From an uncultured Bacteroidaceae bacterium (GTDB taxonomy: Bacteria > Bacteroidota > Bacteroidia > Bacteroidales > Bacteroidaceae): DNA of 64,000 bases. Location of the stretch: positions 3,256-67,255 of the forward strand of contig CAJOIE010000011.1 of the NCBI GenBank assembly GCA_905234605.1, read 5' to 3'. This document shows positions 13,487 through 50,622 of the stretch, piece by piece (positions within the stretch are counted from its first letter, which is position 1; every line of letters starts with the position of its first letter). The notes under the pieces are model-generated. The model saw nothing but the letters and a program-made list of their open reading frames with translations. It did not search any database and was not told the DNA's origin. A program made the position numbers and the translations under genes.

Positions 13487-13594
13487 GGGGTGCAGGGACA
13501 TGCACAGAGAGCCTGCATGGTGAACGCAAAGAGGGTGCAGGGGGAACGACAACCCCCTGCACCCTCTTTGTGTTCACCCTGCACCCTCTTTGCG
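13487..13594. repeat. Locus A of the CACCCTGCA/TGCAGGGTG intergenic repeat family (about 5 copies, mixed orientation, about 22-bp phasing)
   Basis: Cores lie near 13490 (GTGCAGGG), 13512 (CCTGCATGGTG), 13535 (GTGCAGGG), 13555 (CCCTGCACCC) and 13575 (CACCCTGCACCC). The locus sits between the convergent genes argF' and rlpA. Confidence 0.8.
13522..13575. terminator. Long hairpin, probable bidirectional terminator between convergent argF' and rlpA
   Basis: GAACGCAAAGAGGGTGCAGGGGG (13522-13544), an 8-nt loop, then CCCCCTGCACCCTCTTTGTGTTC (13553-13575). The arms are 23 nt with a single G:T position. Confidence 0.6.
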
Positions 13595-13660
13595 TAGCCG
13601 CCGCAGGCCTTTGTTCAGGCAGCTGTGCACAGTCGCTACGGCATGTGCATGCGCCGCGCC

Positions 13661-14284
13661 TCACTTGTGCAGCAGGCCGCGACGCTTCCGGCTGACAGCC
13701 ACCGGCCTGACAGCACTGCGCAGCGTGGTGTCGGTGCGCAGGGGCTGGCTCAGGGAGTCGGGCTCAACGTGCGGCACGAAGGTGCGGGAGAGACGGTGGC
13801 GTGCGTAGTAGATGCTGTCGTCCATCCACTCCGGCGGCCCGTCGACATCATCGCCGCTGAAGGCAAGGTCAAGCTCCACGGGCTTCTCCGTGGCAATATA
13901 CTTATAAGGTATCTGCAAGGGCAGGTATGGCGTGATGAGCACAGGACGGTAGCCCCAGCGTATGATGTCCAGCTCACGGGCCGCAGCACGAGAGAGGTCT
14001 ATCACGAACTTGCGCGAGTAGGGGCCGCGGTCCGTCACGCGGACCACCACCTCCTTGCCGTTGGTCAGGTTGCGCACCAGCAGCAGGGTGCCCATCGGGT
14101 AGTGCAGGTGGGCGCACGTCATGCTGTCGCGGTGGTAGAGTTCACCGTTGCTCATGCGCCGGCCGTGGAAACGGTCGGAATAGTAGGAGGCATAGCCGCT
14201 CTGTTCGGGCAACTGCTGGGCGTGGAGGCAGACAGCGGTCGTCAGCGCAAGGAGAAGGCTTGGCAGGATGTGCTTCGTGTTCAT
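13661..14284 (-). CDS. rlpA: RlpA-like septal-ring lytic transglycosylase (DPBB domain) lipoprotein
   Basis: MNTKHILPSLLLALTTAVCLHAQ is signal-peptide-like. GYASYYSDRFHGRRMSNGELYHRDSMTCAHLHYPMGTLLLVRNLTNGKEVVVRVTDRGPY is the RlpA double-psi beta-barrel signature. I trimmed the start to ATG 14284. Confidence 0.75.
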   Translation of the reverse strand: MNTKHILPSLLLALTTAVCLHAQQLPEQSGYASYYSDRFHGRRMSNGELYHRDSMTCAHLHYPMGTLLLVRNLTNGKEVVVRVTDRGPYSRKFVIDLSRAAARELDIIRWGYRPVLITPYLPLQIPYKYIATEKPVELDLAFSGDDVDGPPEWMDDSIYYARHRLSRTFVPHVEPDSLSQPLRTDTTLRSAVRPVAVSRKRRGLLHK

Positions 14285-14389
14285 GTGGAGGCAGGAACCA
14301 TGTGCTCCCGTCAGTGGGCGCAAGTTAGGCAATTGTCGCAAATGGACAAACTTTTGGCGGCATTTGCAGAGGCTTATCGATGAAATGAC

Positions 14390-14397
14390 TACCTTTG
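14390..14397 (+). promoter_or_regulatory. Candidate -7 promoter box TACCTTTG upstream of wza
   Basis: It matches the Bacteroides primary-sigma consensus TAnnTTTG and lies 49 nt upstream of the wza ATG, with TTTG elements 23-35 nt further upstream. Confidence 0.3.
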
Positions 14398-14445
14398 CGC
14401 GTTATCCTGTGCAACCAATCACTCTATTCTCCATACATCAAGGAT

Positions 14446-15285
14446 ATGAAGAAACAAAGCAAAATCATCTTCCTCATAGCTGCGCTCATGGCGTCACTCC
14501 TTGCCACGAGCTGTATATCAGACAAGAAGATAGTCTACATCCAGGGCACCGACTCCGTCTATGCCGTGCCCAAGAGCATCGCACAGTCGTTTGACCTGCG
14601 CATACAGCCCGACGACCAGCTGGCAATATCAGTGACCTCGAAGAACCGTGAGCTCATCGAGCCATACAACAACACCACCCTCATCGGTAGCGGTATAGCC
14701 AACCCCACAGGAGCCAACACCGCCAACACCACATCAGGCGTCAGCTACTTCCGCGTCAACAAGGAAGGCGACATACTCTTCCCCGTATTCGGAAGGCTGC
14801 ATGTGGCCGGCATGGGAACATCGGAGCTCAGTGCCACAATCCAGAAACTGTTCCGTGAGGGCGATGCACAGCATGCCCCAAGCATCAAGGACGCACTCGT
14901 CACCACGCGTGTCATGAGCTTCAAGGTCACCATCCTGGGCGATGTCAAGTCGCCAGGCACACAGACATGCTCCAGCGAGCGCCTAACCATACTCGAGGCC
15001 ATAGGCCGTGCCGGCGACCTCAACAGCTCCGCACGCCGCGACAATGTCCTCGTGGTGCGAGAGGAGGACGGACGCCGCGTGGCATACCCCGTCAACCTGC
15101 TCGACCAGGCCAGTGTGTTCAACTCGCCGGCCTACTACCTGCAGCAGAACGACGTAGTCATAATCCAGCCAAACAAGTCGGTGCGGGTGAAAGGCTCCAC
15201 AAGCTACACACTGCTCAGCGTCAGCTCCACACTCGTAAGCATGGTGGTCTCCATCATATCGCTCATAGTGGCTATGAACAGATAG
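14446..15285 (+). CDS. wza: Polysaccharide export outer-membrane protein (Wza family, Poly_export + SLBB)
   Basis: MKKQSKIIFLIAALMASLLATSC is a lipoprotein signal. ...IQPDDQLAISV... and ...VTILGDVKSPGT... LTILEAIGRAGDL... are typical Wza/SLBB motifs. I trimmed the start to ATG 14446. Confidence 0.85.
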   Translation: MKKQSKIIFLIAALMASLLATSCISDKKIVYIQGTDSVYAVPKSIAQSFDLRIQPDDQLAISVTSKNRELIEPYNNTTLIGSGIANPTGANTANTTSGVSYFRVNKEGDILFPVFGRLHVAGMGTSELSATIQKLFREGDAQHAPSIKDALVTTRVMSFKVTILGDVKSPGTQTCSSERLTILEAIGRAGDLNSSARRDNVLVVREEDGRRVAYPVNLLDQASVFNSPAYYLQQNDVVIIQPNKSVRVKGSTSYTLLSVSSTLVSMVVSIISLIVAMNR

Positions 15286-15331
15286 ACCACAACCACAGCC
15301 AAGCAACGTCAGTAACTACCCACACACTCTC

Positions 15332-17880: not shown

Positions 17881-20274
17881 ATGCATCATACCCTCATCGC
17901 AATCCTCTCGGCAGCATGTCTGCTCATGGTGCCAGTGGCCAGGGCCGGGGCACAGCAATCCGGCCGTATTGCACAGCCATACACTATGGCCGGTCCTTAC
18001 GAGGTGGTGGCGCGCGACGGTGCCTTCCGTTCCACCAAGGGCGGCAGCGAGCGCGACATGCGGGCTGCTTGGCAACTGGCCATGGACGGCCGCCACGCCG
18101 AGGCCCTTGCCATAATCAACGCCTATGCCGCCACGCTCCAGCGTCTTGACGGGCACGATGCCCCGCTGTGCCTCATTCAATGCTACTGGCTGTGCCGCGC
18201 CATGTTTATCGAGAAAGCCCACCGCACACAGGCCTGGCACGATATGGTGCAGCGTGCCATGGTGCCCACCATGCGTCAGTTTGAGAGCGACAGTCCCTAT
18301 GCCAACGGCAACTGGGGTGCCATCGTCAACCGCTGCCGTATGGCTGCCGCGCTTGCCATGGGCGACACGGCTATGTACCACGAGGCTGTCGGCTACTACC
18401 TTCATGCTTACGACAACGGTGCACTGCCCAACTACGTTGTCAGCACCACGGGGCAGTGCCAGGAGACGGGGCGCGACCAGAACCATGTGCAGCTGGGTCT
18501 TCAGGCGTTGGCCGAGACGTGCGAGATGGCCTGGGAGCAGGGCGACGACCTTTGGGGTGCTCTCGACAACCGATTGCTGCATGGTTTTGAGTACACTGCA
18601 CGCTACAATCTGGGCTACGACGTGCCCTACACGCAGTGGCACGACCTCACCGGCCTCTACTGCGACTGGGAGCGGCCCGGAGCCATGGGGCGCGGCCGTC
18701 TGTGGGACATATATGAGCTGCCATATCAGCACTATGTAGGCCGTCGTGGCCTGCAGATGCCCTATACGGAGCGTGCGCTAAGGCTGTTCCCTGCCGACAG
18801 GGAGCGCACCATAGGCCGTGAGGCTGTGGTGCAGGCCCCTGGCGTGAAGGAGGGTGCGAAGCTGCACGAGGTGTTCGCATACGCTGCACCCGATGGCACT
18901 CCGCTGCGCCACGACTACGACGTCTACGTCCAGCCCCGCGGCCAGCAGCATTGGACCCGCATTGACACCTATGCCGCCAGGGTGAACAGCCCCGTGCTTG
19001 ACGGCGGCCCTGGCTCGGGAGCCCGCAAGCACCGCATCAGCGACATCAGCTACGCCTTCTTCGACTTCACGGGCGATGTCTTTGTGCGTGTCGTGCTTCG
19101 AGGCGACACCATCCGCTCGGCGCGCATACGGCCCGACTACCGTGGCACCATTGCCAACATCGTCAACGACTCCACGGTGCAGTTCCTGCTCTTCCAGCCT
19201 GAGAATGTGAGCGTCGAGGTCAACGGCCGCACCGACATGCTTCTGTTCACGTCCAAGCCTCCACAGAACCTCGATGATGCCCGCCGGCAGGCTCGCCGCG
19301 AGAAGCGTCGGTTTGCTTATTATGCACCAGGCTTCTACGATGCCGACACCATCCGTCTTGCCTCCAACACTACTGTCTATCTGGCCGGCGGCAGCTACTT
19401 CACCGGCACCTTCGCCATAGACGATGCCGAGAATGTCAGCATCGTGGGGCGTGGTGTGGCGCGCCCGCTGCGCGGCTACGAGGGTTGCCATGTGTACCGC
19501 TCGCGCAACGTGCTTGTGGACGGCCTCATCGTCAACACCTGCCCTGTGGGCGGCAGCGACGGTGTCACCATCCGCGATGTGCGCAGCATCTCGCATCCCA
19601 GTTGGGGCGACGGCCTCAACGTGTTTGCCTCGCAGAATGTGTTCTACGACCGTGTGTTCTGCCGCAACAGCGACGACTGCACCACGGCCTATGCCACGCG
19701 CAAGGGCTTCTCGGGCAACACGCGCAACATCCGCATGCGCAACTCCACGCTGTGGGCCGACGTGGCACATCCCATCTTCATCGGCTTGCATGGCAACCCT
19801 GCCGTGCGCGACACCATAGAGCATCTCGTGTATGAGAACATCGACATACTCGGGCAGGCGGAGCCGCAGGTGGACTACCAGGGATGCCTCGCCATCAACT
19901 GCGGCGACGACAACCTCGTGCGCGACGTGCTCTTCGACAACATACGCATCGAGCAGATTGCCGACGGGTGCCTGCTGCAGGTCAAGGTGGCCCACAACCA
20001 GAAGTACTGCACTGCACCAGGCCGCGGCGTGGAGGGTGTCACCTTCCGCAACGTGCGCTACACGGGCACCCTGCCCAACCTGTCGGTCATCAACGGCTAC
20101 GATGCCACCCGCACTGTCAGCGGCATCACCTTCGAGGGGCTCAAGGTCAATGGCCAGCCCGTCTACGATGCCATGCCCGGCAAGCTTCGCTGGTATGCCA
20201 CGTCCGACTACGTGCCCCTCTTCGTGGGCAACCATGTCAGCGGGTTGCAATTCAAGGTGTCACCTCACGATTGA
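17881..20274 (+). CDS. Secreted two-domain enzyme: N-terminal alginate-lyase-like alpha/alpha toroid plus C-terminal right-handed beta-helix glycoside-hydrolase-like (GH28/GH49-type) domain
   Basis: 797 aa with signal peptide MHHTLIAILSAACLLMVPVARAGAQ. The N-terminal half (...AAWQLAMDGRHAEALAIINAYAATL...YANGNWGAIVNRCRMAAALAMGD...QCQETGRDQNHVQLGL...) resembles the Alginate_lyase (PF05426-type) family. The C-terminal half (...VTIRDVRSISHPSWGDGLNVFASQNVFYDRVFCRNSDDCTTAY...IRMRNSTLWADVAHPIFIG...) shows beta-helix repeat periodicity with acidic catalytic-type motifs. Confidence 0.65.
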   Translation: MHHTLIAILSAACLLMVPVARAGAQQSGRIAQPYTMAGPYEVVARDGAFRSTKGGSERDMRAAWQLAMDGRHAEALAIINAYAATLQRLDGHDAPLCLIQCYWLCRAMFIEKAHRTQAWHDMVQRAMVPTMRQFESDSPYANGNWGAIVNRCRMAAALAMGDTAMYHEAVGYYLHAYDNGALPNYVVSTTGQCQETGRDQNHVQLGLQALAETCEMAWEQGDDLWGALDNRLLHGFEYTARYNLGYDVPYTQWHDLTGLYCDWERPGAMGRGRLWDIYELPYQHYVGRRGLQMPYTERALRLFPADRERTIGREAVVQAPGVKEGAKLHEVFAYAAPDGTPLRHDYDVYVQPRGQQHWTRIDTYAARVNSPVLDGGPGSGARKHRISDISYAFFDFTGDVFVRVVLRGDTIRSARIRPDYRGTIANIVNDSTVQFLLFQPENVSVEVNGRTDMLLFTSKPPQNLDDARRQARREKRRFAYYAPGFYDADTIRLASNTTVYLAGGSYFTGTFAIDDAENVSIVGRGVARPLRGYEGCHVYRSRNVLVDGLIVNTCPVGGSDGVTIRDVRSISHPSWGDGLNVFASQNVFYDRVFCRNSDDCTTAYATRKGFSGNTRNIRMRNSTLWADVAHPIFIGLHGNPAVRDTIEHLVYENIDILGQAEPQVDYQGCLAINCGDDNLVRDVLFDNIRIEQIADGCLLQVKVAHNQKYCTAPGRGVEGVTFRNVRYTGTLPNLSVINGYDATRTVSGITFEGLKVNGQPVYDAMPGKLRWYATSDYVPLFVGNHVSGLQFKVSPHD

Positions 20275-21096
20275 TGTCTGCGCGTTGCGCAGGCCGGTGG
20301 CGCGCGAGAGGTAGGCCTTGGCCGTGCCGAACTTGAGGTATAGGTCAAGGCGCACAGGCATGTGGTTGGCGTCGTCGGTGACGTAGAAGGTCACTATATC
20401 CTTCTCTTTCTTGCCCTCATACTCCACGAAGGAGAACACGAGGCAGCGGTATGTCACGTTGCTGTCCTCCATCTTGAAGCGTTTGCGTCCGCGGTAGATG
20501 AGTGTCTCGCGTGCCACGTCGTCGCCGTCGGCCATCAGGAACTCTATGTGCTGCCCCTCGCTGAAGGCCGTGGGGTCGAAGGAGCGTGCACGCATGAGCA
20601 TGCTCACCATGTCGAACACACACTCGGCACTGTCGTGGCGGCGTGTGCGCACCTCGCCCTTGGGGTTTATGTATCGCTGGTCGAGGTGTGTCTGTCCGTC
20701 GGCATAGGAGTAGTGCACCTCGTCGACGTTGTAGCGTTTACCTTCGAAGGCACCCTTGCGGTAGTAGAGGGGCACGAGGTCGGGCGTGAGGTAGGAGAGC
20801 AGCGTGTCGCGCAACATGAAGTACTTGTCGGTGCGGTCGCTGCCCCGCGTGATGAGGTGGCAACGGTAGGCCTGCTGCCCTTTATAGTTGGTGCGGCTGA
20901 TGTTGAGGTTGGCCGTGCCGGCTTTCAGCCAGATGAATTTCCAGTTAAAGTAGAGCTGGTATTGCAGGTCCTCGCCTGCCGAGAAGGCTGTGTTCTGGAT
21001 GGGGCACTGCGCGGTGGCGGTGACTGCGGCGAGGGTGTGCAGTGCTATGGCGACGACTGTGCGGAGGGTGTGGCGGCGGAGTGCTGTGTGTGTCAT
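20260..21096 (-). CDS. DUF3108 domain-containing protein
   Basis: 278 aa, signal-like N-terminus. ...GEDLQYQLYFNWKFIWLKAGTANLNISRTNYKGQQAYRCHLITRG...YFMLRDTLLSY... fits the DUF3108 family as I remember it from Bacteroides. Confidence 0.65.
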   Translation of the reverse strand: MTHTALRRHTLRTVVAIALHTLAAVTATAQCPIQNTAFSAGEDLQYQLYFNWKFIWLKAGTANLNISRTNYKGQQAYRCHLITRGSDRTDKYFMLRDTLLSYLTPDLVPLYYRKGAFEGKRYNVDEVHYSYADGQTHLDQRYINPKGEVRTRRHDSAECVFDMVSMLMRARSFDPTAFSEGQHIEFLMADGDDVARETLIYRGRKRFKMEDSNVTYRCLVFSFVEYEGKKEKDIVTFYVTDDANHMPVRLDLYLKFGTAKAYLSRATGLRNAQTSIVR

Positions 21097-21102: not shown

Positions 21103-21224
21103 GTGCAGTATGTTGTGAGAGACCGTGCAGGGTGTCGGCGACAGACCGTGCAGGGTGTTGCAGATGTGGGTGCAGGGTGTCGGCGTTCACCGTGCAGGGT
21201 GCTGACGGCCCGCGGTGCAGGGTG
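21103..21224. repeat. Locus B of the repeat family: six direct copies of GTGCAGGGTG (first copy degenerate) phased 22-23 bp
   Basis: Core starts are 21103 (GTGCAGTATG), 21125, 21148, 21170, 21192 and 21215, so spacings are 22, 23, 22, 22 and 23. The array fills the gap between the Ig-like lipoprotein stop (21229) and the DUF3108 start (21096). Confidence 0.85.
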
Positions 21225-21228: not shown

Positions 21229-23175
21229 TCAGCGGCTCCGGCGCCGCTGTTGTTCACGCTCCGCGTTGCGGTTGCGCTTCTTGCGGGCCTTGTCGGGTTT
21301 CTGTTTGGTGATTTTCTCGGGCTTCTGCCGGTGGGTGGCAATAGTGCGCGGTGCCCACTGCTGCTCCACCTCCCAGTTGGCTTTCACGGTGATGGCTTTG
21401 GGGAAGTAGAACACCTGCTCGGGCTGGAGCTGCCGGTCGTAGTCGCCGGTTGTCCAGACGCCGTCGCCGTTGGCGTCAATGTAGAGCCGCAGGTAGTAGT
21501 CGCCGGGCTTGAGGTAGAAGAAGTCTGCACGCCCGTCGGCATCGGCGCGCTCGGAGCGCACGGGCTTGTCGGAGGCGTTGAGCAGTTCGACCACTATGGC
21601 CGTGTCCGCCGTCTGCACCTGCACGAAGAGCGCACCGTACTCCTCCTCGCGCCGCACCTTATACTCTTGGCGGAAGGCCTTGTTGTGGTGGCCCATGACG
21701 CTGGTCATGGCTGCGCTGTCGATGGTGAGCTGGTAGGTGTGGCCCAGCTGCCAGTCGGCGTAGAGCGTGGCTTGCAGCGGGTTGCCCTCTGTGGGCACGA
21801 GGGCGAACACGGTGTCCACCCACAGCGTGTCGCGCTTCACGGCGAAGTGGATGGCACTGCTGTCGGGCAGGGCCGTGGGCTCGGAGAATGTCAGCAGCGG
21901 CCACTGGTTGGGGTCGATGCTGCCGGCAGGCTTGCTGCTGATGGTGAGGTAGGTGCTGAGGTAGGGGTTCTCCTCGGTGAGCATGGTGCCTTCGCGCTTC
22001 TGCTTGCGACGCTGCTCCTTCTCCCACTGCTCGGTCTGCTCGGCCAGCTCGCGGAGTATGCGGGCACGTGTCTTGCGCGGCACGAGGTGGAAGGTGTCGG
22101 TGCTCCACGTGAGCTGCTGTGTGGAGTCGGTCTCAAGGAAGTGGTACACCATTGAGAGCGTGTCGGCGTAGGCCAGCGTGGTGTCGGTTATCCAGTAGGT
22201 GATGGTGTCCATGCCGGCCGATGCCACGGTGGTGAAGCCCCCGTCGCCCTCGAATGACAGACCCTCGATGCGCGGCATGCTGTCGGCAGGCGCGGTGAAG
22301 TAGACGGTGAACGTCTCGGGCACGTCGCGCTGCTGCTTGAGCAGATGCCGCTCCGCGCCGCCGGCCTTGAAGGCACGCAGCACGATGTCGTCAGGCCGGA
22401 AGTGAGTGTAGCCCACGGGCACGATGCTGTCGTAGTGGGTACTGTCGCGCCAGACAGTGTCTAAGCGTATGTCGGGCTTGGCCGTCGAGGCAAAGGTCGT
22501 GGTGTCCCACGCCATCATCTCTGAGGGCTGCGAGTAGACCTGGTCGCCGTCGGCATCCAGCAGGGCGTAGGCCGCGTAGCGTGTCCCGCGCGCCACGCCC
22601 TTGATGACGAAGCGTCCGCTGCCGTTGGTGCGGCTGACACGGTCGAAGGGACGCTGCCGCAGCACGCTGTCGGAGAGCACGCTGTCCGGCTCCACGGCAT
22701 ACAGACCCACGAGGATGCCCTTCACGGGCTCCAGGTTGGAGGCATCAAGCACATAGCCCGACACCTCCATCGTGTCGATGCTCTCGCCGGTGGAGAACGC
22801 GTAGGTGAAGTTGCCCATCGGGTTGCCCTCGTTGTTGTCCACGATGGCGTCGGCAAAGTCCACCGTGTAAGTGGTGTTAGGGCGCAGGGTGTCGTAGAGC
22901 GTGATGTGCACATGCTTGCCGCTGGCCCTCACGCTGGGCATCTCACGCTGCTGCGGCGACACCACCACCTTCTCGCTCGCATTCTCTATCTTGATATACT
23001 CGTCGAAGCTGATGGTGATGCGCTTAGAGCGGGCACCCGTGGCCATGTTGGCCGGCGAGGCCGACACCACACGGGGCGGTGTCTCGTCGTAGGCACCTCC
23101 GTCGGGGCTGCCAATGCTGGCGCAGGCTGCGGCCAGCACGGTAGCAAGCACTATGGGCAGCAGCTTGCGCATCAC
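21229..23175 (-). CDS. Ig-like (SbsA/Big_5-type) domain lipoprotein with a strongly basic C-terminal tail
   Basis: MMRKLLPIVLATVLAAAC is a lipobox. ...ETPPRVVSASPANMATGARSKRITISFDEYIKIENASEKVVVSP... resembles the Big_5 N-terminal domain. The C-terminus is KPEKITKQKPDKARKKRNRNAEREQQRRRSR. The start is GTG 23175 or ATG 23172. Confidence 0.7.
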   Translation of the reverse strand: MMRKLLPIVLATVLAAACASIGSPDGGAYDETPPRVVSASPANMATGARSKRITISFDEYIKIENASEKVVVSPQQREMPSVRASGKHVHITLYDTLRPNTTYTVDFADAIVDNNEGNPMGNFTYAFSTGESIDTMEVSGYVLDASNLEPVKGILVGLYAVEPDSVLSDSVLRQRPFDRVSRTNGSGRFVIKGVARGTRYAAYALLDADGDQVYSQPSEMMAWDTTTFASTAKPDIRLDTVWRDSTHYDSIVPVGYTHFRPDDIVLRAFKAGGAERHLLKQQRDVPETFTVYFTAPADSMPRIEGLSFEGDGGFTTVASAGMDTITYWITDTTLAYADTLSMVYHFLETDSTQQLTWSTDTFHLVPRKTRARILRELAEQTEQWEKEQRRKQKREGTMLTEENPYLSTYLTISSKPAGSIDPNQWPLLTFSEPTALPDSSAIHFAVKRDTLWVDTVFALVPTEGNPLQATLYADWQLGHTYQLTIDSAAMTSVMGHHNKAFRQEYKVRREEEYGALFVQVQTADTAIVVELLNASDKPVRSERADADGRADFFYLKPGDYYLRLYIDANGDGVWTTGDYDRQLQPEQVFYFPKAITVKANWEVEQQWAPRTIATHRQKPEKITKQKPDKARKKRNRNAEREQQRRRSR

Positions 23176-24680
23176 GTGTTGAAAGCCAGCATCTGGTCGA
23201 TGAACTCGCGCGTGTTGCTCAGACGGGGCACCTTATGCTGGCCGCCGAGCTTGCCCTTGCTGCGAAGCCAGTCGGTGAAGAGACCCGGCCGTGCCTCTAT
23301 GACCTCCAGCCGCTGCAGGGTGATGTCCTTGTAGCGCTTGGCCTCATAGTCGGAGTTGATGGCTTGCAGAGAGCGGTCGAGGACATCGGCAAAAGCCTCC
23401 ACACTCCCTGGACGCTGCGCGAACTCCACGAGCCACTGGTGGCGACAGTGCCCCTCGGCATCCATGAAGACAGGCGCGGCCGTGTACTCCAGCACCTGAG
23501 CCCCCGTCTGCCGGCACGCTTCAGCCAGGCCCTGCTCGGCATTGTCCACTATCAGCTCCTCGCCAAAGGCGTTGATGAAGAACTTGGTGCGGCCCGTGAT
23601 GACAAACTTATAAGGGTCGCGCCGTGTGAAGCGCACTGTGTCGCCGATGAGGTAGCGCCACAGACCGCTCGACGTGCTTATCACCATGGCGTAGTTGCGA
23701 CCCGTCTCCACCTCCCACAGAGGCACCGTGCGGGGATGCTCCTGCGAGAGCTCGTCCATGGGGATGAACTCGAAGAACACGCCATAGTCCACACACAGCA
23801 GCATGGCCTTGTCGGCAGGGTCGTCCTGTATGCCGAAGAAACCCTCCGAGGCATTGTAGGTCTCCATGTAGCTCATCTGCGGGTTGGCGATGAGGCGGCG
23901 GTACTGCTCGCGGTAAGGGGTGAAAGCCACACCGCCGTGGAAGAACACCTCCAGGTTGGGCCACACCTGGTCTATGCGCTCGGCACCCGAGAGCTCAAGC
24001 ACACGTGTCAGCACGGACAGCATCCACGAGGGCACGCCGCTGAGGCTCGTCACGTCCTTGCCCATGGCCTCGCGGGCGATACGGTCGCGCTTCACCTCAA
24101 AGTCGGAGAGCAGCGCGGTGCTCTTCTTGGGCACGCGCATCATGTTCACCAACGGGTTGATGTTCTCTATTAGGATGGCACTAAGGTCGCCCACGAGGCT
24201 GTCGGCCACGTTGTAATTGGGCGAATGGGACCCTCCAAGTATCAGTGCGCGACCCTGGAAGAGGCGGCTGTCAGGGTGTGTGTGCAGATAGTGCACCACA
24301 CAGTCGGTGCCGCCCTGGTAGTGTGTGTCGTCGAGGGCGTCGGCCGACACGGGGATGAACTTGCTCTTGTCGTTGGTCGTGCCGCTCGACTTGGCGTACC
24401 ACTTCACACGCCCTGGCCACAGCACATCCTTCTCGCCATGGCGCATGCGGTCTATGTCGGCCTTGAGGTCGTCGTAGCTGCTGATGGGCACGCGTGCCGC
24501 CCAGTCGTGATAGGTGTGTATGTCGGCGAAGCCGTAGCGGAGACCCCACTCCGTGTCCTTGGCCATTGTGAGCAGATGGTGCAGCACGCGCCGCTGGATG
24601 GCCTCGGCGGCTGTCGTGTAGGCCTCTAACTGGTGCAGGCGGTGGGAGAGGCAGGTGCGGATGATGCTTGTTCGGTTCAT
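23172..24680 (-). CDS. GH3 (auxin-responsive promoter) family adenylating enzyme homologue
   Basis: ...WGLRYGFADIHTYHDWAARVPISSYDDLKADIDRM...VKWYAKSSGTTNDKSKFIPVS... is the bacterial GH3-family pattern. I trimmed the start to ATG 24680, because the track ORF carries a Pro/Ser/Arg-rich extension. Confidence 0.8.
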   Translation of the reverse strand: MNRTSIIRTCLSHRLHQLEAYTTAAEAIQRRVLHHLLTMAKDTEWGLRYGFADIHTYHDWAARVPISSYDDLKADIDRMRHGEKDVLWPGRVKWYAKSSGTTNDKSKFIPVSADALDDTHYQGGTDCVVHYLHTHPDSRLFQGRALILGGSHSPNYNVADSLVGDLSAILIENINPLVNMMRVPKKSTALLSDFEVKRDRIAREAMGKDVTSLSGVPSWMLSVLTRVLELSGAERIDQVWPNLEVFFHGGVAFTPYREQYRRLIANPQMSYMETYNASEGFFGIQDDPADKAMLLCVDYGVFFEFIPMDELSQEHPRTVPLWEVETGRNYAMVISTSSGLWRYLIGDTVRFTRRDPYKFVITGRTKFFINAFGEELIVDNAEQGLAEACRQTGAQVLEYTAAPVFMDAEGHCRHQWLVEFAQRPGSVEAFADVLDRSLQAINSDYEAKRYKDITLQRLEVIEARPGLFTDWLRSKGKLGGQHKVPRLSNTREFIDQMLAFNT

Positions 24681-27107: not shown

Positions 27108-27233
27108 TGTCTTGAGTATTTAATGGTGGTTAAATGTTGTTCTTGTTGCAGTTTCAGGGCACAAAGGTCGGTAATTTTTGATGAATACCAAACAAATAGC
27201 GGGAAAAATGGGTGCTGGGTGCTCGTGGGCACT

Positions 27234-27354
27234 GTGCAGGGTGTCTGTCTGCACCCTGCATGGTGTCGGGGCATCAGGGTGCAGGGTGTTTGCCTGCACC
27301 CTGCATGGTGATGGGCATCGGGGTGCAGGGTGCCGGAGGGGCGGGTGCAGGGTG
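27234..27354. repeat. Locus C of the repeat family: six cores in alternating and direct orientation on a 22/44-bp lattice
   Basis: GTGCAGGGTG occurs at 27234, 27279, 27323 and 27345. The inverted CACCCTGCA occurs at 27252 and 27297. Two 44-bp units each form a TGCAGGGTG-n7-CACCCTGCA hairpin and are followed by two 22-bp direct units (GGGTGCAGGGTGCCGGAGG). The locus lies between the pdxB stop and the acpP start. Confidence 0.85.
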
Positions 27355-27405
27355 CCGGAGGGTGTGGCTGTGTGGTGTGGCGGTTGTGGCTGTCGGCGGC
27401 TGCTG

Positions 27406-35969: not shown

Positions 35970-36059
35970 CACCCTGCATGGTGTTACGCCATCACCCTGC
36001 ATGGTGAAGCACATCACCCTGCACCCTCCGCTACATGGGGGTGCAGGGTGATGTGCTTC
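35970..36059. repeat. Locus D of the repeat family: three direct CACCCTGCA copies (22-23 bp apart) plus one inverted copy closing a perfect 21-bp hairpin
   Basis: CACCCTGCA occurs at 35970, 35993 and 36015, and GTGCAGGGTG at 36041. The hairpin is GAAGCACATCACCCTGCACCC (36006-36026), a 12-nt loop, then GGGTGCAGGGTGATGTGCTTC (36039-36059). It lies directly downstream of ackA and is a probable terminator. Confidence 0.85.
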
Positions 36060-36116
36060 ACTGCGCAGGGCCGGCCGCGGTGGCCTGTGTGTGGCTGCAC
36101 AGTTGGCTATTGAGGG

Positions 36117-45164: not shown

Positions 45165-45198
45165 CCTCTCTCCCGTGGGAGAGGGGAGAAGTCTCCCC
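45165..45198 (+). terminator. Overlapping G/C-rich hairpins downstream of radC
   Basis: CCTCTCTCCC-gtg-GGAGAGGGG (45165-45186) and GGGGAG-aagt-CTCCCC (45183-45198). The first shares the CCTCTCTCCC...GAGAGGG module with the terminator at 62262. Confidence 0.4.
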
Positions 45199-45263
45199 CC
45201 GACCCCTTTCCCGTGGGATAGTAGATACTAAAAGATTAATATCACTGTTAATATAGCAAGCTA

Positions 45264-45695
45264 ATGGTACAAGAAACAATTCATGAAGGCAATACAGGCA
45301 CGCCTCATGAGACACACGCACCTCAGGGTCATACTCCCCACTCCCACAGGAGAGGGGGCGGTGGTGAGGCTTCCGGGGTTGAGGCTACCACCCTTCTTGA
45401 TAGTGTCGTCGACATGCTGCGCACGGTCTACGACCCCGAGATACCTGTCAACATCTACGACCTCGGCCTCGTGTACCGCATCGACCTGAGCGACGACGTG
45501 CCGCCCGTGCTCAACGTGGACATGACCATGACGGCACCCACGTGCCCCATGGCCGACTTCATCATGGAGGACGTGCGGCAGAAGCTCGCCACCATCGACG
45601 GCCTGGCCGCCGTCAATGTCAACCTCGTGTTCGAGCCCGAATGGGACCGCAGCATGATGAGCGACGAAGCAAAGCTTGAACTTGGCATGATGTAA
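45264..45695 (+). CDS. DUF59 (SufT/PaaD-like) Fe-S assembly protein with a His-rich N-terminal extension
   Basis: The core ...LRTVYDPEIPVNIYDLGLVYRIDL...MTMTAPTCPMADFI... is the DUF59 signature. The N-terminal 35-40 aa (HEGNTGTPHETHAPQGHTPHSH) are extra, and there is no in-frame alternative start before Met51. Confidence 0.8.
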   Translation: MVQETIHEGNTGTPHETHAPQGHTPHSHRRGGGGEASGVEATTLLDSVVDMLRTVYDPEIPVNIYDLGLVYRIDLSDDVPPVLNVDMTMTAPTCPMADFIMEDVRQKLATIDGLAAVNVNLVFEPEWDRSMMSDEAKLELGMM

Positions 45696-46458: not shown

Positions 46459-46506
46459 GAGAGCCGTGCATAAAGGGCGCGGTGCAGGCGGCAGGCAATA
46501 CACAGA

Positions 46507-46532: not shown

Positions 46533-46596
46533 CCTTTCACTTATTATTAAATTACAACTTGGTGCGGGCGCGCGGCCTGCGCCAGATTGCGGGAGT

Positions 46597-46632
46597 AAAA
46601 GGGGGCATTCCTTGGCGGAGATGCCCCCTTTT
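46597..46632. terminator. Bidirectional intrinsic terminator
   Basis: AAAAGGGGGCAT (46597-46608), a 12-nt loop, then ATGCCCCCTTTT (46621-46632). The stem is a perfect 12 bp with A/T runs on both sides. It lies 24 nt after the stop of the 52-codon ORF. Confidence 0.65.
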
Positions 46633-46655
46633 GTTGGGGATGGTCAGAGTGTGGC

Positions 46656-46814
46656 TTACCAGATGCCCTTCACGTCGGCTTCGGCACCTTCCTGGTCCTC
46701 GCCGCCGAGCTCAAGGCCGCTGTTGCCGCCAATGCCCTTGATGGAGGCTGCTATCATGCTCTGCATGGCGTAGGCCTCGGCCTCGATGGCGGGAGCGAAA
46801 TATGTCTTCTTCAT
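46656..46814 (-). CDS. Unannotated small ORF, 52 aa, acidic and Gly-rich, no family recognised
   Basis: Hand translation gives MKKTYFAPAIEAEAYAMQSMIAASIKGIGGNSGLELGGEDQEGAEADVKGIW*. Third-codon positions are mostly G/C, as in neighbouring genes. The ORF is bracketed by a hairpin upstream (46847-46868) and a strong terminator downstream (46597-46632). Confidence 0.45.
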   Translation of the reverse strand: MKKTYFAPAIEAEAYAMQSMIAASIKGIGGNSGLELGGEDQEGAEADVKGIW

Positions 46815-46846
46815 AGTGAGTGGTTGTTTTAATGACCCTCCCCGTG

Positions 46847-46868
46847 CCCCTCCCGCTGTGGGGAGGGG
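46847..46868 (-). terminator. Short G/C hairpin downstream of the T9SS adhesin gene
   Basis: CCCCTCCC-gctgtg-GGGAGGGG, about 50 nt after the stop at 46920. Confidence 0.35.
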
Positions 46869-46919
46869 GCTTGGGGTGAGCCGTGATGATTATTATGTTG
46901 TCTTCTCTCCGGCAGCGGC

Positions 46920-49900
46920 TTATTTGAGCACCTTCTTGCCGCCGATGATGTAGAGGCCCTTCTGGACGCGTGCCACACGCTGGCCGGCGATGTTGAAGAT
47001 GGCGCCCTGCTCAGCCTGGATGCCGTTGATGGCCTGGATGCCGGTGGTGATGCCGTCGATGGCAATCTTCACCTCGCCCACCTCAGTCTTGGGCTCGAGG
47101 TATGCGCGGAAGGCATTGATGCTGTGAGCCGTGGCAGCCTTGTAGAGCTTGCCGCCGTTGATGTAGTAGCTGTCGATGGCTACCTCGGCGGGAGCATAGA
47201 CACCCACGAAGTCGATGTTGGCACCAGTCACGATGGCCTCGTCGGCAGCCACAACCTGCACGCCGCTGAACACCTGCTCGGTGCTGGCTGCGGTGGCCTT
47301 GACGAGCACGGGCACGTTGGCGGAGATGGTATTAACATTGGTGAAGTTGATGGTCACGTTAGAGGCATCCTCGCTGGTCTCGCTGTAGGCATACACCTCA
47401 GCTCCGGTGCCGAAGGCGGCCACCACCTGGGCTGTTGTGAGGTCGAAGGGCAGCACTACAGTGTTGAGGCCCTCCTTGATGTTGCGTGTGATGGTGACGT
47501 TGGCCACTTCGACATCCTCAATGACGTTCTCGGCTGCCTCGTCATAGGCAACAGCCTCGGCGATGTTGTTGGCAGAGAGGAGCTCGCCGTCGGCGATGGA
47601 CATCCACTGATACTGTGTAGAGGCTTCAGCATAGAATGTGATGGTCACCTCAGTCTCCTCATCAAGAGTGAAGGGGAGGAAGCGCCACTGCCAGCCGGCA
47701 CCAGAGTTGCCAACGGCAGCAGCAGGGTCGTTATGGATACCGCCGGTTCTGATGAACTCGTCGTTCTCATCCCAGCTGGCCTTGCCGGCGGTGTTGATAC
47801 CGCGGGTGTTGTTGCCGGCGCAGGGCAGGGAAATAGTGGTGGCGAGAGCCGTGCAGCTTATGGAGCTGGTGACTCCGGCCGATGAGCGGGCTGCAACCTT
47901 CACGACATAGCTGCCGGCGGGCAGTGTGGTGGTCTTGGTGTACTCGATGGTCCAGCCTCCTGCGTTGCTGTAGCCATTGCCGCACTGCTCGTAGTAGGGA
48001 TGAGTAACACCGCTATAGTGCTCCCAGTTGAGTGAGTTGGGGCTATCATCTGTGCGGTCTGCGCCGAGGGTAGCTGTGCCGGTCCATGTGCTGAAGTCGC
48101 CAATCTTGGATGTGAGCGAGTAGGGGTAGCTTGCGGTGGCTTCGTCGTACTGTGCAATATTGAGGTTCTGGACGGCGGTCACAGCCTCGGCAGCGGTGGT
48201 GGGAGCTGGGACATCGAAGTCGGAGCCGAAGAGGGCAATGGTCTCGGCCTTGTATGCCACGTATGCGTCGTAGGAAGCGGCGGCAGCGGTGAAGGCTGTT
48301 GTAGCGTCGATGATGGCGTTGGTGGCTGCAAGGATGGATGCCTTGGTCTCGCCCTCGTCAGCATCCAGAGCTTCGGTGAGTGCTGTGAGCTCGTCGCCGG
48401 TCACGTTGACGTAGGCTTCATCTTCGAGAGCTGCCACAGCTGCGTCAGCAGCCTCAGCGTAGGCTGCTTTATACATGGTGAGGTCGACGTATGCGCCGTA
48501 GTACTTCAGGGTGAAGTCGCGGAAGATGGTCCACTTGTCGGTCTGGGTGTCGGTGTGTTGCTCTCCTCCTCGAGGGAGAACTTGAGGGCCACCTTGCCGT
48601 TGCCATTGTCGAAGTATGTCTTGGCTTCAGCCATGGTATTCACAACGGAAGATTCTACGCCAGGGATGAGCACGCGGTCCTCGCCGGCATAGAAATATGT
48701 ATTGAAGTCACCTTGACCGCCGCGGTGGAAGCCCGTCACGCCGAACTCCCATGTGCCGAGCGGCAGGGTCAGGGTCTGGTAGAACTTGAAGTTCTGCTGG
48801 TAGAACTCACACTCCTCATCGCCCACCTTGCCGAAGCTGTAGTTGCCAACCTGTGTGCCTTCGATGGTCCAGTAGTTGGTGTTCTGACGCACGGAGGCGT
48901 TGTCCACGAGCACGGCGGTCACGTCGATGTAGCTGCCTTCGAGGAATGCCTCACGCAGGCTGACCACGGCGGCGTTGACAGCCTCTGTTGTGATGGCAGT
49001 CTCCACTTCATCGTCGGCAGCGGCAACATCCACATTCTCGGAGACGGCCAAGGCTGCTGCCTTCACGGTCTGATAGCGGGCATAGCTGCTCTGGAGAGCC
49101 TTGGCGGCATTCACCTTCTCAGTAAGAGCTGAGGATGCTGCGCTGATGGCCTCCTCAGTGGTGAGGCTTGCTACGTCGATGCCATCGGCACATTCCTTGG
49201 CTGCATTGTAGGCGGCAGTAGTTGTCGTACTCTCCAAATCGGCAACGGCATCTATCTGCTCCTGAAGAGCCTCACGGAGTGCTGTGAGGTCAACGCCCAG
49301 ATACAGCAGCTGGAAGTTGTCCCAGATACACCAAGTATCGGTACGTGTACCCTTCACGCCAATGGTAAGAGAGCCATCTGTAACGGTCACTTCAATATAG
49401 TCGGTGAAGTACTTCCCAGCAGTGAAACTTGCTGATAATTGGGTCATGCTTGAACCCCGGTCAGATGCGTCCATCTCATTAAACGGAACAGAAGCACTAC
49501 CGGCATAAACCACGGGATAGTTAGCACCATCGTATGCATTGGAATAATCGGTCAATGCGGCCTGAGCACGCAGCTTGTAGTTACCATTGGGAACGGTGAT
49601 GGTCTGGCTCAACGTGAAGGTCGACCGCCAAGACTCAGCACAACAGTTGGTGTTGTTGCCACCACAGAGGTTCTGGTTGCTGGCAACCATCGTCCAAGCA
49701 CCTGTCCAATTGTTATCAGCAACCTTTGTCTCGTTACGGTTGTTGCGGTCGAAGTTGGAATCCAGGATCATGTAAGTGACATCCACGGGATTCTCTGTAG
49801 AAGCACCGGCGTAAGCCTCGTCGTATGCCATAATCTTCCACTGGGCATTAGGATTCGTGGCATCGGTCAGAGTGCTGGCCAGAACATAGCTGCTTCCATC

Positions 49901-50260
49901 GTATCCATAATAAGTGGTTCCGTTGGACATGGTGTAAACACCATCGCTCACCTCGTTGATGGTGACCTCGGCGGCAGTACCGTCCATATAAGAGCCTGTG
50001 AAATAGTAGTTGGTTCCGCCATTGCTGACCTGTGACTCGATGGTATAGGCACCATTGGACAGCTTTGCCAGGGTGTTGTAGTGGCTGAACTCAATCAGCG
50101 AAGCCTGAGTACCCCATGAGTTTCCGGGGCCAAAATAGCGACCCGAGCCAATGTTCTGGAAGACGTACTTCCCATCAGCAAAGTCTGCAGCGGTCTGAGC
50201 ATTCACGCTCAGGCTGAACATTGCCGCCACAGCGGCCAGAAGAAGTTTGATTTTCTTCAT
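46920..50260 (-). pseudogene. About 1100-aa modular T9SS-secreted lectin/adhesin-like protein split by a single frameshift near 48554-48557
   Basis: ORF 48506..50260 has a signal peptide (MKKIKLLLAAVAAMFSLSVNAQ) but no CTD. ORF 46920..48476 has no signal peptide but ends in a T9SS CTD (...IFNIAGQRVARVQKGLYIIGGKKVLK). Shifting frame at AACACACCGAC restores ...SLEEESNT(x)DTQTDKWTIFRDFTLKYYG-AYVDLTMYKAAYAEA..., which parallels the end of module 1 (...TRTDTWCIWDNFQLLYLG-VDLTALREA...). Confidence 0.7.
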
Positions 50261-50373
50261 GTTGTTAGAAAGTTGTTAGTTAATAATAATGTATATAAAA
50301 GGGTGAACCTATGGAGGTGGATGGAACTCGCACAGGCGGTTCCACGCAATGCACTCACGTGCATATCACGCGG

Positions 50374-50381
50374 CAAATATA
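50374..50381 (-). promoter_or_regulatory. Candidate -7 box TATATTTG for the T9SS adhesin gene
   Basis: The reverse complement of CAAATATA matches TAnnTTTG. It lies 113 nt upstream of the ATG at 50260. Confidence 0.3.
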
Positions 50382-50400
50382 TAGACTAATTAGCCACTCA

Positions 50401-50408
50401 CCCCCCCC
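50401..50408. repeat. C8/G8 homopolymer tract
   Basis: Eight consecutive C on the plus strand, 19 nt upstream (gene sense) of the candidate -7 box. Confidence 0.9.
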
Positions 50409-50516
50409 GTACCGTTAATTTTTATTAAAAGTGATAGCGGGCTGTTCTTTTTATCCTCACATGGCTACTTTCTGCCTCATGCATGCATGCATTTGCACAG
50501 CAGGATGGCTCTGTCG

Positions 50517-50622
50517 GCCACCCTTCATCCTTCTCTGCCATCACCCTTCATCCTCTCTGCCATTACCCTGCACCCTTCTGTGCCATCACCCTGCACCCTT
50601 CTCTGCCATCACCCTGCACTCG
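50517..50622. repeat. Locus E of the repeat family: 5 tandem copies of a unit of about 22 bp, consensus GCCATCACCCTGCACCCTTCTCT
   Basis: Units start at 50517, 50537, 50559, 50582 and 50605. The first two are degenerate (CACCCTTCA), and the last three carry CACCCTGCA or TACCCTGCA. Confidence 0.9.

Follow-up and report, generated by a model that had tools for sequence, protein, structure and literature searches.

Five intergenic gaps of the window, the whole 64-kb stretch of DNA that was analysed, hold arrays of a short dispersed repeat whose units keep a strict 22-23 bp register. The repeat family is real and genome-specific; it is akin to REP elements and to the BrickBuilt element, and is no new kind of system. 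Our tentative preference is for a genome-specific dispersed intergenic minisatellite with a dyad core that would be read by a putative sequence-specific protein.

The core motif and its abundance

The host of this DNA is an uncultured high-GC Bacteroidales bacterium from gut or rumen. The 9-mer CACCCTGCA is the top-ranking 9-mer of the window by count, with 19 exact copies on the two strands. Dinucleotide-preserving shuffles (n = 100) contained a mean of 1.69 copies and a maximum of 5, and none of the 100 reached 19. The copies are concentrated between genes, as the original prediction had anticipated: 18 of the 19 are intergenic and fall in five gaps, intergenic DNA making up about 11% of the window. 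The binomial chance of this placement is about 1e-16 when calculated by copies, and 0.11^5, or about 2e-5, when the five arrays are taken as single events. The remaining exact copy (23314-23322, reverse strand) is located inside a GH3-family gene, off the lattice. It is not a member of the family, about 1.7 copies per window being predicted by chance.

When copies with one and two mismatches are included, the family comprises 27 units. All five arrays were found where they had been predicted; the expected 4-6 copies per array become 4-7 once these degenerate copies are counted. The unit is 22-23 bp long and consists of a 9-12 nt core, CACCCTGCA(C/T)(C/G)(C/G), placed on the dyad TGCA, followed by a spacer of about 11-13 nt. 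In 13 units the core corresponds to about 1.7 copies of a heptamer (CACCCTG CACCC), and in 4 units it is the near-palindrome CACCCTGCATGGTG. The GC content of the array gaps is 52-66%.

A strict lattice with a conserved core and free spacers

All 22 centre-to-centre intervals between consecutive TGCA motifs measure 22 bp (n = 14) or 23 bp (n = 8), and TRF periods at the five loci are 22, 23 and 45. The predicted 22-23 bp phasing is thus seen throughout; the 44-45 bp spacing proposed for alternating orientations is also present, but it equals two lattice steps. Neither an orientation flip nor a hairpin loop, of 8 or 12 nt, disturbs the register. Since it is common to both strands, it is a property of the DNA.

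The sequence between the cores had been described as loosely conserved, and so it proved. Core identity is 0.93 within arrays and 0.91 between them, as compared with 0.45 and 0.36 for the spacers, where chance gives 0.29. Departures from the consensus of the parent array affect 11 of 243 core positions versus 124 of 351 spacer positions (Fisher p 4e-21). Information content is high only from -5 to +3 around TGCA, moderate from +4 to +7 and near zero elsewhere. As the core is conserved and the spacer near random, a sequence-specific constraint bears on the core and the spacing only, which disfavours neutral slippage. Under that alternative, the arrays would be replication-slippage minisatellites with no function or recognition, and the common core would reflect recent ancestry or chance. 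It draws on the clade-wide presence of intergenic short tandem arrays, with many unit sequences and variable copy number, and on the TGCAGGG heptamer arrays that occur in many phyla among the matches listed. However, core and spacer would then be expected to decay equally, contrary to the counts above. Moreover, cores are as alike between arrays as within them while between-array spacers are near chance, and none of the 22 intervals contains a register-breaking indel. Neutral slippage is therefore very improbable. The clean split between a constrained core and register and a free spacer argues for a specific protein reader, for which the family provides a defined bait.

Organization of the five arrays

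Array 1 (13480-13594) is composed of five lattice units, with TGCA at 13491, 13514, 13536, 13558 and 13580. It lies between the convergent ends of a carbamoyltransferase gene (end at 13467, forward strand) and an RlpA-like gene (end at 13661, reverse strand). Three units are oriented one way and two the opposite way, and a nested palindrome extends over the full array (MFE -102 kcal/mol, z -11.4 relative to shuffled sequence). The central hairpin (13519-13578) pairs arms 13519-13544 and 13553-13578 over 26 bp, with one G-T pair and a loop of 8 nt.

Array 4 (35970-36061), which is also flanked by convergent genes, contains 4 perfect cores (TGCA at 35975, 35998, 36020 and 36042) between the end of ackA (35948, forward strand) and that of a DUF4160 gene (36252, reverse strand). 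The final unit is flipped and forms a perfect 23-bp stem (36004-36026 with 36039-36061) closed by a 12-nt loop, with z values of -8.3 and -8.6 for folding.

The other three arrays separate co-directional genes. Array 2 (21103-21224, reverse strand) consists of six direct units, five of them with a perfect core (TGCA at 21104, 21126, 21149, 21171, 21193 and 21216). Its neighbours, both on the reverse strand, are a Big_5 gene with its stop at 21229 and a DUF3108 gene that starts at 21096. The array occupies the entire 132-bp gap between them, and its secondary structure is not significant (z -0.8 relative to shuffled sequence). Array 3 (27209-27354, reverse strand) contains seven units centred at 27213 (TGCT), 27235, 27257, 27280, 27302, 27324 and 27346 (TGCA), and is located 52 bp after the stop of a pdxB-like gene (27406) and 127 bp before the start of acpP (27107). 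Every other unit carries the near-palindromic core, which gives rise to a 45-bp higher-order repeat and to hairpins of 9-14 bp (z -4.5 and -5.5). Array 5 (50519-50622, forward strand) is made of five direct units with T(G/T)CA at 50524, 50547, 50569, 50592 and 50615; two cores are perfect and three have one mismatch. The array lies between two reverse-strand genes, a sulfatase-domain gene with its stop at 50825 and a DUF5013 gene that starts at 50260. Its core is oriented against transcription, so that the G-rich strand would be present in the mRNA, and no structure beyond that of shuffled sequence was detected (z -0.6 and -0.85).

Some arrays thus have direct units and others inverted ones, and hairpins form in the latter, in agreement with the original prediction. 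The perfect hairpins of 21-23 bp that it announced are found at array 4 only, the stem of array 1 being longer and imperfect and those of array 3 much shorter.

Gene context and secondary structure

Each array lies next to a stop codon (distances of 5, 20, 22, 52 and 203 bp), and divergent promoter gaps hold none of the five. Of the placements first proposed (3' ends of convergent genes, gaps between co-directional genes, and sites just upstream of gene starts), proximity to a gene 3' end, in a convergent or co-directional setting, is seen for every array. The two arrays at convergent ends, 1 and 4, are the two long palindromes, with stems of 26 bp and 23 bp (n = 5 loci in all). In co-directional gaps, arrays 2 and 5 are unstructured and array 3 has short hairpins.

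Such a context could suggest an RNA-level 3'-UTR or intercistronic element, in which the transcribed arrays would serve as terminators, as barriers to RNases or as RNA repeats that bind proteins, and the DNA lattice would be a by-product. Every array is located 3' of a stop codon, the folding of arrays 1, 3 and 4 far exceeds that of shuffled sequence, and such roles have been credited to REPs and BrickBuilt (PMC3733652, PMC4596501). However, two of the arrays lack structure, and the units keep no constant orientation relative to transcription: array 2 would yield a C-rich RNA, array 5 a G-rich one and the other arrays a mixture. The hairpins contain no U-tract, and a register extending across both strands belongs to the DNA. 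In Rfam, no match was obtained at gathering score; the matches below threshold were all of generic long-hairpin type (miRNA-precursor or FinP-like), over arrays 1 and 4. A primarily RNA-level element is improbable.

Several narrower readings were also considered. Canonical intrinsic terminators were rejected for the array hairpins, which lack the U-run: a consensus scan gave 9 sites versus 9.2 in shuffles, none of them at these hairpins. A canonical intrinsic terminator is present elsewhere in the window (46597-46632). Rho-utilisation sites and other RNA-motif readings were discarded on the inconsistent orientation of the units relative to transcription. Four G3 tracts occur in only some unit pairs, so G-quadruplexes leave the family as a whole unexplained. 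An ArgR gene is located at 1525-1980 in the window, but the core is unlike ARG boxes, which are AT-rich palindromes.

Flanking sequences and gene content

The five arrays share no leader, tail, terminal inverted repeats or target-site duplications, and an all-against-all comparison of their 200-bp flanks gave chance matches only, of at most 14 nt. With terminal inverted repeats, target-site duplications and common flanks all absent, no direct sign of mobility was detected. Neither a RAYT or other transposase gene, as had been predicted for RAYT, nor a rep or integrase gene is encoded in the window. The 29 kb that separate array 2 from array 5 contain only housekeeping genes (fabF, acpP, murC, folP, pta, ackA, ddl, rpmH, efp).

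These data bear on the proposal of an iteron-type array. Iterons are direct repeats of about 17-22 bp that follow a lattice of about 22 bp at one locus beside a rep initiator gene, where DnaA boxes and an AT-rich unwinding region are also present; classical iterons, like 22-bp transposase end sites, have a period of 22-23 bp. The window arrays resemble them in their 4-7 short sites, their conserved core and their 22-23 bp, two-turn period, and arrays 2 and 5 are mutually inverted, as the ends of a Tn7- or Mu-type transposon might be. In contrast to iterons or centromeres, they are five in number, more than one origin would need, and are dispersed among chromosomal housekeeping genes over a span of 37 kb, outside any origin or partition context. 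Furthermore, unit orientation flips within arrays, and no Rep or Par gene is present in the window. The match in phasing does not suffice for iteron membership, and gene content refutes both the plasmid or phage iteron and the transposon-end reading for the window. An assembly artefact is contradicted by the identical sequence of independent assemblies and by the length of each array, which is shorter than a sequencing read. These explanations, taken together, are scarcely credible.

Relatives, strains and wider occurrence

The family was not found in the syntenic stretches, of about 20 kb, of five related species whose AckA is 84-88% identical; the protein collection contained no closer relative. 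In three of the five, the gap 3' of ackA holds unrelated short repeats. Judged from these sequences, the apparent replacement of the array corresponds to the turnover that is typical of selfish or REP-like elements. The relatives have short arrays of their own between genes; the units frequently measure 22 or 44 bp, and their cores are quite different. Copy number differs between strains of one relative (3.9, 7.9 and 3.9 for a 24-bp unit; 3.9, 1.9 and 4.9 for a 40-bp unit). Three independent assemblies that carry the present loci are 100% identical over 12-21 kb, with no copy-number variation seen, and the window sequence is the same in assemblies of two ENA analyses, ERZ27234819 and ERZ1667847.

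A search of genome contigs for two cores 22-23 bp apart gave at least 65 matches, in Acidobacteriota, Gemmatimonadota, Streptomyces and several Bacteroidales and Flavobacteriales. Many of the matches listed are (TGCAGGG)n heptamer runs or composite inverted runs. Pure runs of this heptamer, among the matches listed, belong to other organisms and phyla; the window has none. Three phased cores were found at 103 metagenome loci with unrelated unit sequences and a GC content of 33 to 69%, and tblastx of these loci revealed no relative of the window organism. They were not used as evidence, because any 22-23 bp tandem repeat containing the 9-mer matches. Among viral contigs, 7 matches of two cores each were uninformative.

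Comparison with known repeat families

The family has a REP/BIME-like distribution, an iteron-like architecture and a BrickBuilt-like unit length, and meets the definition of none of the three. REP units are imperfect palindromes of 20-40 bp that form a hairpin by themselves, carry a conserved GTAG or CGTC tag at one end and are associated with RAYT, an IS200/IS605-like Y1 transposase (PMC3733652). Like REPs and BIMEs, the window family, as counted within the 64 kb, is genome-specific, abundant, extragenic and mostly 3' of genes. Both occur singly or clustered and in both orientations, with inverted pairs that form hairpins and with proposed roles in termination or mRNA stability. The membership put forward in the original prediction was nevertheless not upheld. 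A single window unit, made of a core and a non-complementary spacer, is no palindrome and forms a hairpin only with an oppositely oriented partner. Arrays 2 and 5 are hairpin-free, and the units have no GTAG or CGTC column. Finally, the units follow a strict 22-23 bp register, whereas REPs and BIMEs have no lattice.

BrickBuilt of Porphyromonas gingivalis is a minisatellite or MITE with a 23-nt unit, present at 19 loci per genome (Klein et al. 2015, PMC4596501). It is strictly intergenic, dispersed and species-specific, the first half of its unit being conserved and the second variable; copy number ranges from 1 to 23, some copies are predicted to fold into long stem-loops, Rfam gave no match and promoter activity was reported (PMC4596501). 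A leader and a tail end in IS5-like terminal inverted repeats, at least one of which is kept in 16 of 19 copies (PMC4596501). By description, the window family belongs to the same order and is likewise dispersed and intergenic, with a tandem unit of 22-23 nt, devoid of extra spacer, that is part conserved and part variable. Both are restricted to a single species and lack an Rfam match. On the other hand, the window arrays have no leader, tail or terminal inverted repeats and nothing in common outside the units; BrickBuilt is AT-richer, and a TGCA-centred, orientation-independent lattice is not part of its description. The original statement that the arrays were not recognised as a described Bacteroidales element has to be qualified, since BrickBuilt is comparable (PMC4596501). 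The family resembles REP/BIME and BrickBuilt in its genomic behaviour, but because it fails a tested defining feature of each, it was filed under neither.

Intergenic heptamer repeats are a further point of comparison: (GGGAATC)n in Xanthomonas, (GGGGAYT)n in Nostoc and STRR (PMC4692102), and TAACTGA in Beggiatoa (PMC4679880). The window family shares with them a G-rich heptamer motif (GGGTGCA) and many intergenic loci with direct and inverted arrangements able to form stem-loops. The length and sequence of heptamer families change fast between related species. The window core, however, contains only about 1.3-1.7 heptamers, with at most two overlapping per unit, and its 22-23 bp unit is no 7-bp run.

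A model for the maintenance of the arrays

In the minisatellite model that we tentatively prefer, a sequence-specific DNA-binding or DNA-processing protein would recognise the core, and its gene would lie elsewhere in the genome. This putative protein would seed or maintain units, and for that reason the core and register would persist while the spacers drift. Slipped-strand or unequal exchange would then add or remove units in register, a process seen in the relatives and presumed here. Units flip about the TGCA dyad with the lattice kept. At convergent gene ends, flipped units form the 23-26 bp hairpins, which by analogy with REP/BIME are probably bidirectional transcript-end or stabiliser structures; the unstructured arrays between co-directional genes would be read through. 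The window encodes no candidate recognising protein, transposase or RAYT gene, which was counted against this model. Also counted against it were the lack of any direct sign of mobility, the identity of the three assemblies, in which the family itself does not change in copy number, and the missing U-run of the hairpins.

Unlikely, but to be taken seriously, is a host architectural or regulatory platform, in which a dimeric chromosomal protein would bind the dyad CACC(C)TGCA(G)GGTG and oligomerise two turns apart, much as on plasmid centromeres or iterons. Gaps at gene ends would thereby be covered by nucleoprotein filaments that serve as insulators, roadblocks or nucleoid anchors, and the arrays would be functional host sites, not selfish ones. 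A strict lattice, equal for either orientation and held over the 8- and 12-nt loops, would suit such a platform, as would the conserved core with free spacers, the near-palindromic core of 4 units and the missing mobility signature. However, the family is missing from related species, syntenic gaps included, so that it is no conserved regulon, and promoter-type divergent gaps are devoid of arrays. Most units have a single good half-site, a candidate protein is absent nearby, and the different cores of the relatives' 22-bp arrays point to lineage-wide array-making rather than to one regulator.

A broader proposal, which we consider rather unlikely, starts from the same dyad. The arrays would be phased landing pads for a dimeric protein that reads CACC(C)TGCA(G)GGTG and polymerises on a 22.4-bp lattice at transcription-unit ends, as an insulator, roadblock or nucleoid anchor. 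The 22-23 (and 44) bp arrays with other cores in the relatives and in Porphyromonas would then reflect a Bacteroidales-wide two-turn lattice mechanism. Should the 22-23 bp preference hold beyond this genome, its relatives and P. gingivalis, a common and unexplained mechanism would shape Bacteroidales intergenic DNA, with a bearing on operon boundaries, transcript ends and strain typing by copy number. Dispersed non-coding families of tandem arrays have been reported to be rare in prokaryotes (PMC6749651). In metagenome annotation, such arrays risk being mistaken for iterons, CRISPR-like arrays or structured RNAs.

The core is overrepresented, intergenic and phased

The core CACCCTGCA, whose dyad centre is TGCA, is the most frequent 9-mer of the window, with 19 exact copies over both strands; dinucleotide-preserving shuffles predict 1.69 and never exceed 5. 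Placement was scored on a gene map that took its gene calls from public contigs of identical sequence and, elsewhere, relied on ORFs having Pfam matches. By this map intergenic DNA makes up about 11% of the window, yet 18 of the 19 exact cores lie in it, in line with the proposal that the core is commoner between genes than within them. The lone coding copy (23314-23322, within a GH3-family gene) corresponds to the number expected by chance. Re-reading the five repeat-bearing gaps of the original prediction recovered all of them as described, at 13480-13594, 21103-21224, 27209-27354, 35970-36061 and 50519-50622 (arrays 1 to 5). The CACCCTGCA repeat family is thus real, well defined and dispersed among intergenic regions. 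Contigs carrying these loci from two ENA analyses (ERZ27234819 and ERZ1667847) are 100% identical to the window and every array is shorter than one sequencing read, which rules out an assembly artefact. That they represent such an artefact, a replication origin or a transposon end is extremely improbable.

When copies with one or two mismatches are counted, the arrays contain 27 units, four to seven in each, compared with the four to six copies first reported. Fourteen of the 22 TGCA-to-TGCA steps measure 22 bp and eight measure 23 bp, with no other value, and Tandem Repeats Finder returned periods of 22, 23 and 45 bp at all five loci, as expected from the 22-23 bp period originally claimed. 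The register is the same for co-oriented and opposed neighbouring units, and it is kept across hairpin loops of 8 nt (arrays 1 and 3) and 12 nt (array 4). The 44-45 bp spacing formerly assigned to alternating arrays is hence two lattice steps and not a separate spacing. The mixed orientation noted at the outset, direct in some arrays and inverted in others, is indeed present: arrays 1 and 4 are palindromic, and orientation flips stay on the lattice. This strict, orientation-independent register around a TGCA dyad is the unusual feature of the family and makes it a good bait for seeking a putative binding factor.

Core and register are constrained, spacers are free

Per-position information content is high at the nine core positions, moderate at the next four and close to zero over the remainder of the unit. 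The core is extended to CACCCTGCACCC in 13 units, which amounts to about 1.7 copies of the heptamer CACCCTG, and takes the near-palindromic form CACCCTGCATGGTG in four. Core identity is 0.93 within arrays and 0.91 between arrays. The corresponding spacer values are 0.45 and 0.36, compared with 0.29 expected by chance from spacer composition (a figure not applicable to the core), so that the spacer is only loosely conserved, as had been stated. Departures from the consensus of the same array affect 11 of 243 core positions vs 124 of 351 spacer positions (Fisher p 4e-21). Core and register are thus under sequence-specific constraint while the spacer is free. The same contrast excludes plain neutral slippage, and an origin of the arrays by neutral slippage is highly doubtful. 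Recent copying of whole units, in its simple form, is excluded by the difference in identity between core and spacer. Comparison of the 200-bp flanks of the five arrays gave only chance matches of up to 14 nt; no leader, tail, terminal inverted repeat or target duplication was found in them.

Gene context and hairpin formation

The window is chromosomal housekeeping DNA from a bacterium of 61% GC, whose nearest named relatives are 'Bacteroidaceae bacterium' MAGs. Among the genes encoded are an arginine biosynthesis cluster, fabF-acpP, murC, folP, pta-ackA, ddl, rpmH and efp. No transposase, integrase or replication initiator is encoded within it, and the reported lack of a RAYT gene holds for gene calls and Pfam matches alike. 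A stop codon adjoins each of the five arrays, and none occupies a divergent promoter gap. Array 1 lies 20 bp past a carbamoyltransferase gene and 67 bp past a convergent RlpA-like gene. Array 2 begins 5 bp past a Big_5-domain gene and extends through the entire gap as far as the following start codon, and is therefore necessarily read through. Array 3 is located 52 bp past a pdxB-like gene and 127 bp ahead of acpP, array 4 is 22 bp past ackA, which is convergent with a DUF4160 gene, and array 5 is about 200 bp past a sulfatase-domain gene.

Both arrays that lie between convergent genes are long palindromes. Array 1 forms a stem of 26 bp, including one G-T pair, inside a larger palindrome (MFE -102 kcal/mol, z -11.4), and array 4 a perfect stem of 23 bp (z about -8.5). 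The hairpins of array 3 reach only 9-14 bp (z about -5), and arrays 2 and 5, which separate co-directional genes, are no more stably folded than shuffled sequences (z -0.6 to -1.1). The perfect 21-23 bp hairpins attributed to inverted arrays are therefore found as such in array 4 only. Hairpin formation seemingly goes with gene arrangement. No U-run accompanies the array hairpins, which a consensus terminator scan does not detect. A canonical bidirectional intrinsic terminator is present at 46597-46632 (AAAAGGGGGCAT, a 12-nt loop and ATGCCCCCTTTT), indicating that standard terminators are in use in the source organism. The would-be RNA is C-rich at array 2, G-rich at array 5 and mixed at arrays 1, 3 and 4, and no consistent rule relates unit orientation to transcription among the five arrays. 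There were no Rfam matches at gathering score; below threshold only generic long-hairpin matches appeared (miRNA precursors, FinP). Taken together, structure and orientation assign the hairpins to some arrays and not to the family, whose own features, core and register, belong to double-stranded DNA. A primary RNA function of the arrays, to which the stable folds of arrays 1, 3 and 4 might point, is improbable.

Other repeats were observed in the window. A degenerate 13-bp repeat, GGTGTGGCGGTTGT (2.7 copies, 27361-27399), adjoins array 3 and reaches the stop codon of the pdxB-like gene. A second small palindromic family (CCYCTCTCCCGTGGGAGAGGGG-like; 45165-45186, 45203-45224, 45336-45357 and 46847-46870), unrelated to CACCCTGCA, occupies two other intergenic gaps. 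The DNA upstream of the window (3.9 kb preceding position 1, positions 1-3877 of the fetched stretch L191, viewed together with window positions 1-2700) has a GC content of 47% vs 61% for the window and encodes a YWFCY-domain protein and uncharacterised ORFs, so that it is probably an acquired or mobile segment. It contains no copy of the core.

Turnover of intergenic arrays in relatives

No protein more than 88% identical to the AckA of the window is on record. Relatives were sampled as stretches of about 20 kb around ackA from five species with AckA 84-88% identical (L numbers denote fetched stretches, each with its own coordinates). The core is absent from all five, including L190, which retains the pdxB-acpP and ackA neighbourhoods, and the intergenic gaps are instead rich in other short arrays. 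L069 carries two arrays of 22-bp units (CCAAGGGGCTTCATCATCATCG and CCCACGAACGTGGGACAATGAG) besides separate arrays of 24-bp and 40-bp units. In L070, a 22-bp array of TGTTCCTGTATCAGGTCCTTGT (9.5 copies) begins immediately ahead of a start codon, with 4.7 copies of a 44-bp unit next to it, and a run of about nine AGTGAGG heptamers occupies another gap; these features lie at 20190-20627 and 12246-12308. L186 has one 22-bp unit; units in L190 and L073-L075 are 7, 9, 12, 18 and 20 bp long. A 22-bp unit or its double occurs in four of the six species sampled, with a different core each time. A relative that stands further apart (AckA 84% identical, about 50% GC) has a dispersed array family of its own, built from the palindromic 9-mer TCTATAGAA and seen in several gaps between co-directional genes, at L073 17471-17524, L074 11584-11617 and 15594-15628, and L075 12450-12483 and 16636-16679.

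The gap of array 4, downstream of ackA, is occupied in relatives by short repeats of unrelated sequence. The 9-mer GCAATTCGT occurs there in inverted sets (L070 11277-11400, the same as L071 7165-7288), and in L190 (11198-11527) a large palindrome is flanked by runs of GAACCCTCA (4.8 copies) and CTTGAACTT. This gap has been colonised repeatedly by different repeats. In a related species with AckA 88% identical to that of the window, a single 850-bp gap holds four arrays with units of 24, 22, 22 and 40 bp (L069 16014-16816, L188 13762-14513 and L189 13977-14915; the AckA protein is identical in two of the three). The 24-bp unit is present in 3.9, 7.9 and 3.9 copies, respectively, and the 40-bp unit in 3.9, 1.9 and 4.9, which is VNTR-like behaviour. 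Rapid, genome-specific turnover of intergenic arrays is thus a trait of the clade.

These data bear on the main rival explanation, in which the arrays are host functional sites where an architectural or regulatory protein would bind at two-turn intervals, the array serving as its platform. Such a platform would best account for the lattice, but the family is not conserved in relatives and 22-bp arrays bearing other cores occur across the clade, both of which sit badly with it, and we consider it somewhat unlikely.

Comparison with described elements

The likeness to REP/BIME elements first proposed is partial. The CACCCTGCA family shares their extragenic location downstream of genes, two orientations, inverted-pair hairpins and genome specificity; it lacks their defining self-palindromic unit and GTAG or CGTC tag (PMC3733652), and its strict register has no equivalent in REPs. 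Iterons, also invoked, have a common architecture with the arrays but not a common context, namely an origin with an initiator gene. The heptamer families of Xanthomonas and Nostoc likewise combine a G-rich heptamer, many intergenic loci, inverted arrangements and rapid change between species (PMC4692102), but repeat by 7 bp instead of 22-23 bp. Dispersed non-coding tandem-array families are reportedly rare among prokaryotes (PMC6749651).

Going by its published description, the closest described element within the same order would be BrickBuilt of Porphyromonas gingivalis. Its tandem unit of 23 nt has one conserved and one variable half; the element is confined to one species, lies at 19 loci, all strictly intergenic, and matches no Rfam family. 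Tandem repeats of 22, 23 and 41 nt had previously been reported in strain W83 (PMC4596501). BrickBuilt units are part of a MITE that has leader and tail segments as well as IS5-like terminal inverted repeats (PMC4596501), all of which the CACCCTGCA arrays lack. The view that the arrays match no described Bacteroidales element calls for some qualification, a similar element being present in the order. We tentatively regard the family as dispersed intergenic minisatellites of a REP-like or BrickBuilt-like kind, a reading that is quite possible. For such minisatellites, a sequence-specific protein encoded elsewhere would recognise the dyad core and seed or maintain units, array length would change in register through slippage or unequal exchange, like the counterparts in relatives, and the palindromic arrays would act as transcript-end or stabilising structures.

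Wider sequence searches

Scanning a single genome of each prokaryotic species for pairs of cores 22-23 bp apart gave at least 65 loci in many phyla. Among the listed matches, none is from the source genome, many are pure (TGCAGGG)n heptamer runs (Flavobacteriales, Bacteroidales and Acidobacteriota), and others are intergenic (TGCAGGG)n ... (CCCTGCA)n composites in Acidobacteriota and Gemmatimonadota. The Vicinamibacterales and Gemmatimonadota composites consist of a G-rich run and, some 50-100 nt further on, C-rich copies that point the other way. Loci of the TGCAGGG type were located on fetched stretches L007 (4176-4462), L021 (846-896), L044 (4462-4645), L052 (2216-2267) and L057 (7808-7929), and further ones on L016, L049, L053, L023 and L002. 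A few of the listed matches are 21-23 bp arrays (Prevotellaceae, Dysgonomonadaceae, Chlorobiaceae and Chitinophagaceae). The GTGCA(N)GG motif family is widespread, and no description of it was found. A metagenome scan for three phased cores yielded 103 loci with unrelated units, none from relatives of the window organism. These loci are best read as coincidental matches, tandem repeats of 22-23 bp being exceedingly numerous. One stretch, L013 (3821-7981), from a contig binned as Metamycoplasmataceae with 49% GC, is nearly all 23-bp satellite with at least 100 core copies; the contig was probably placed in the wrong bin and derives from a host or another eukaryotic source.
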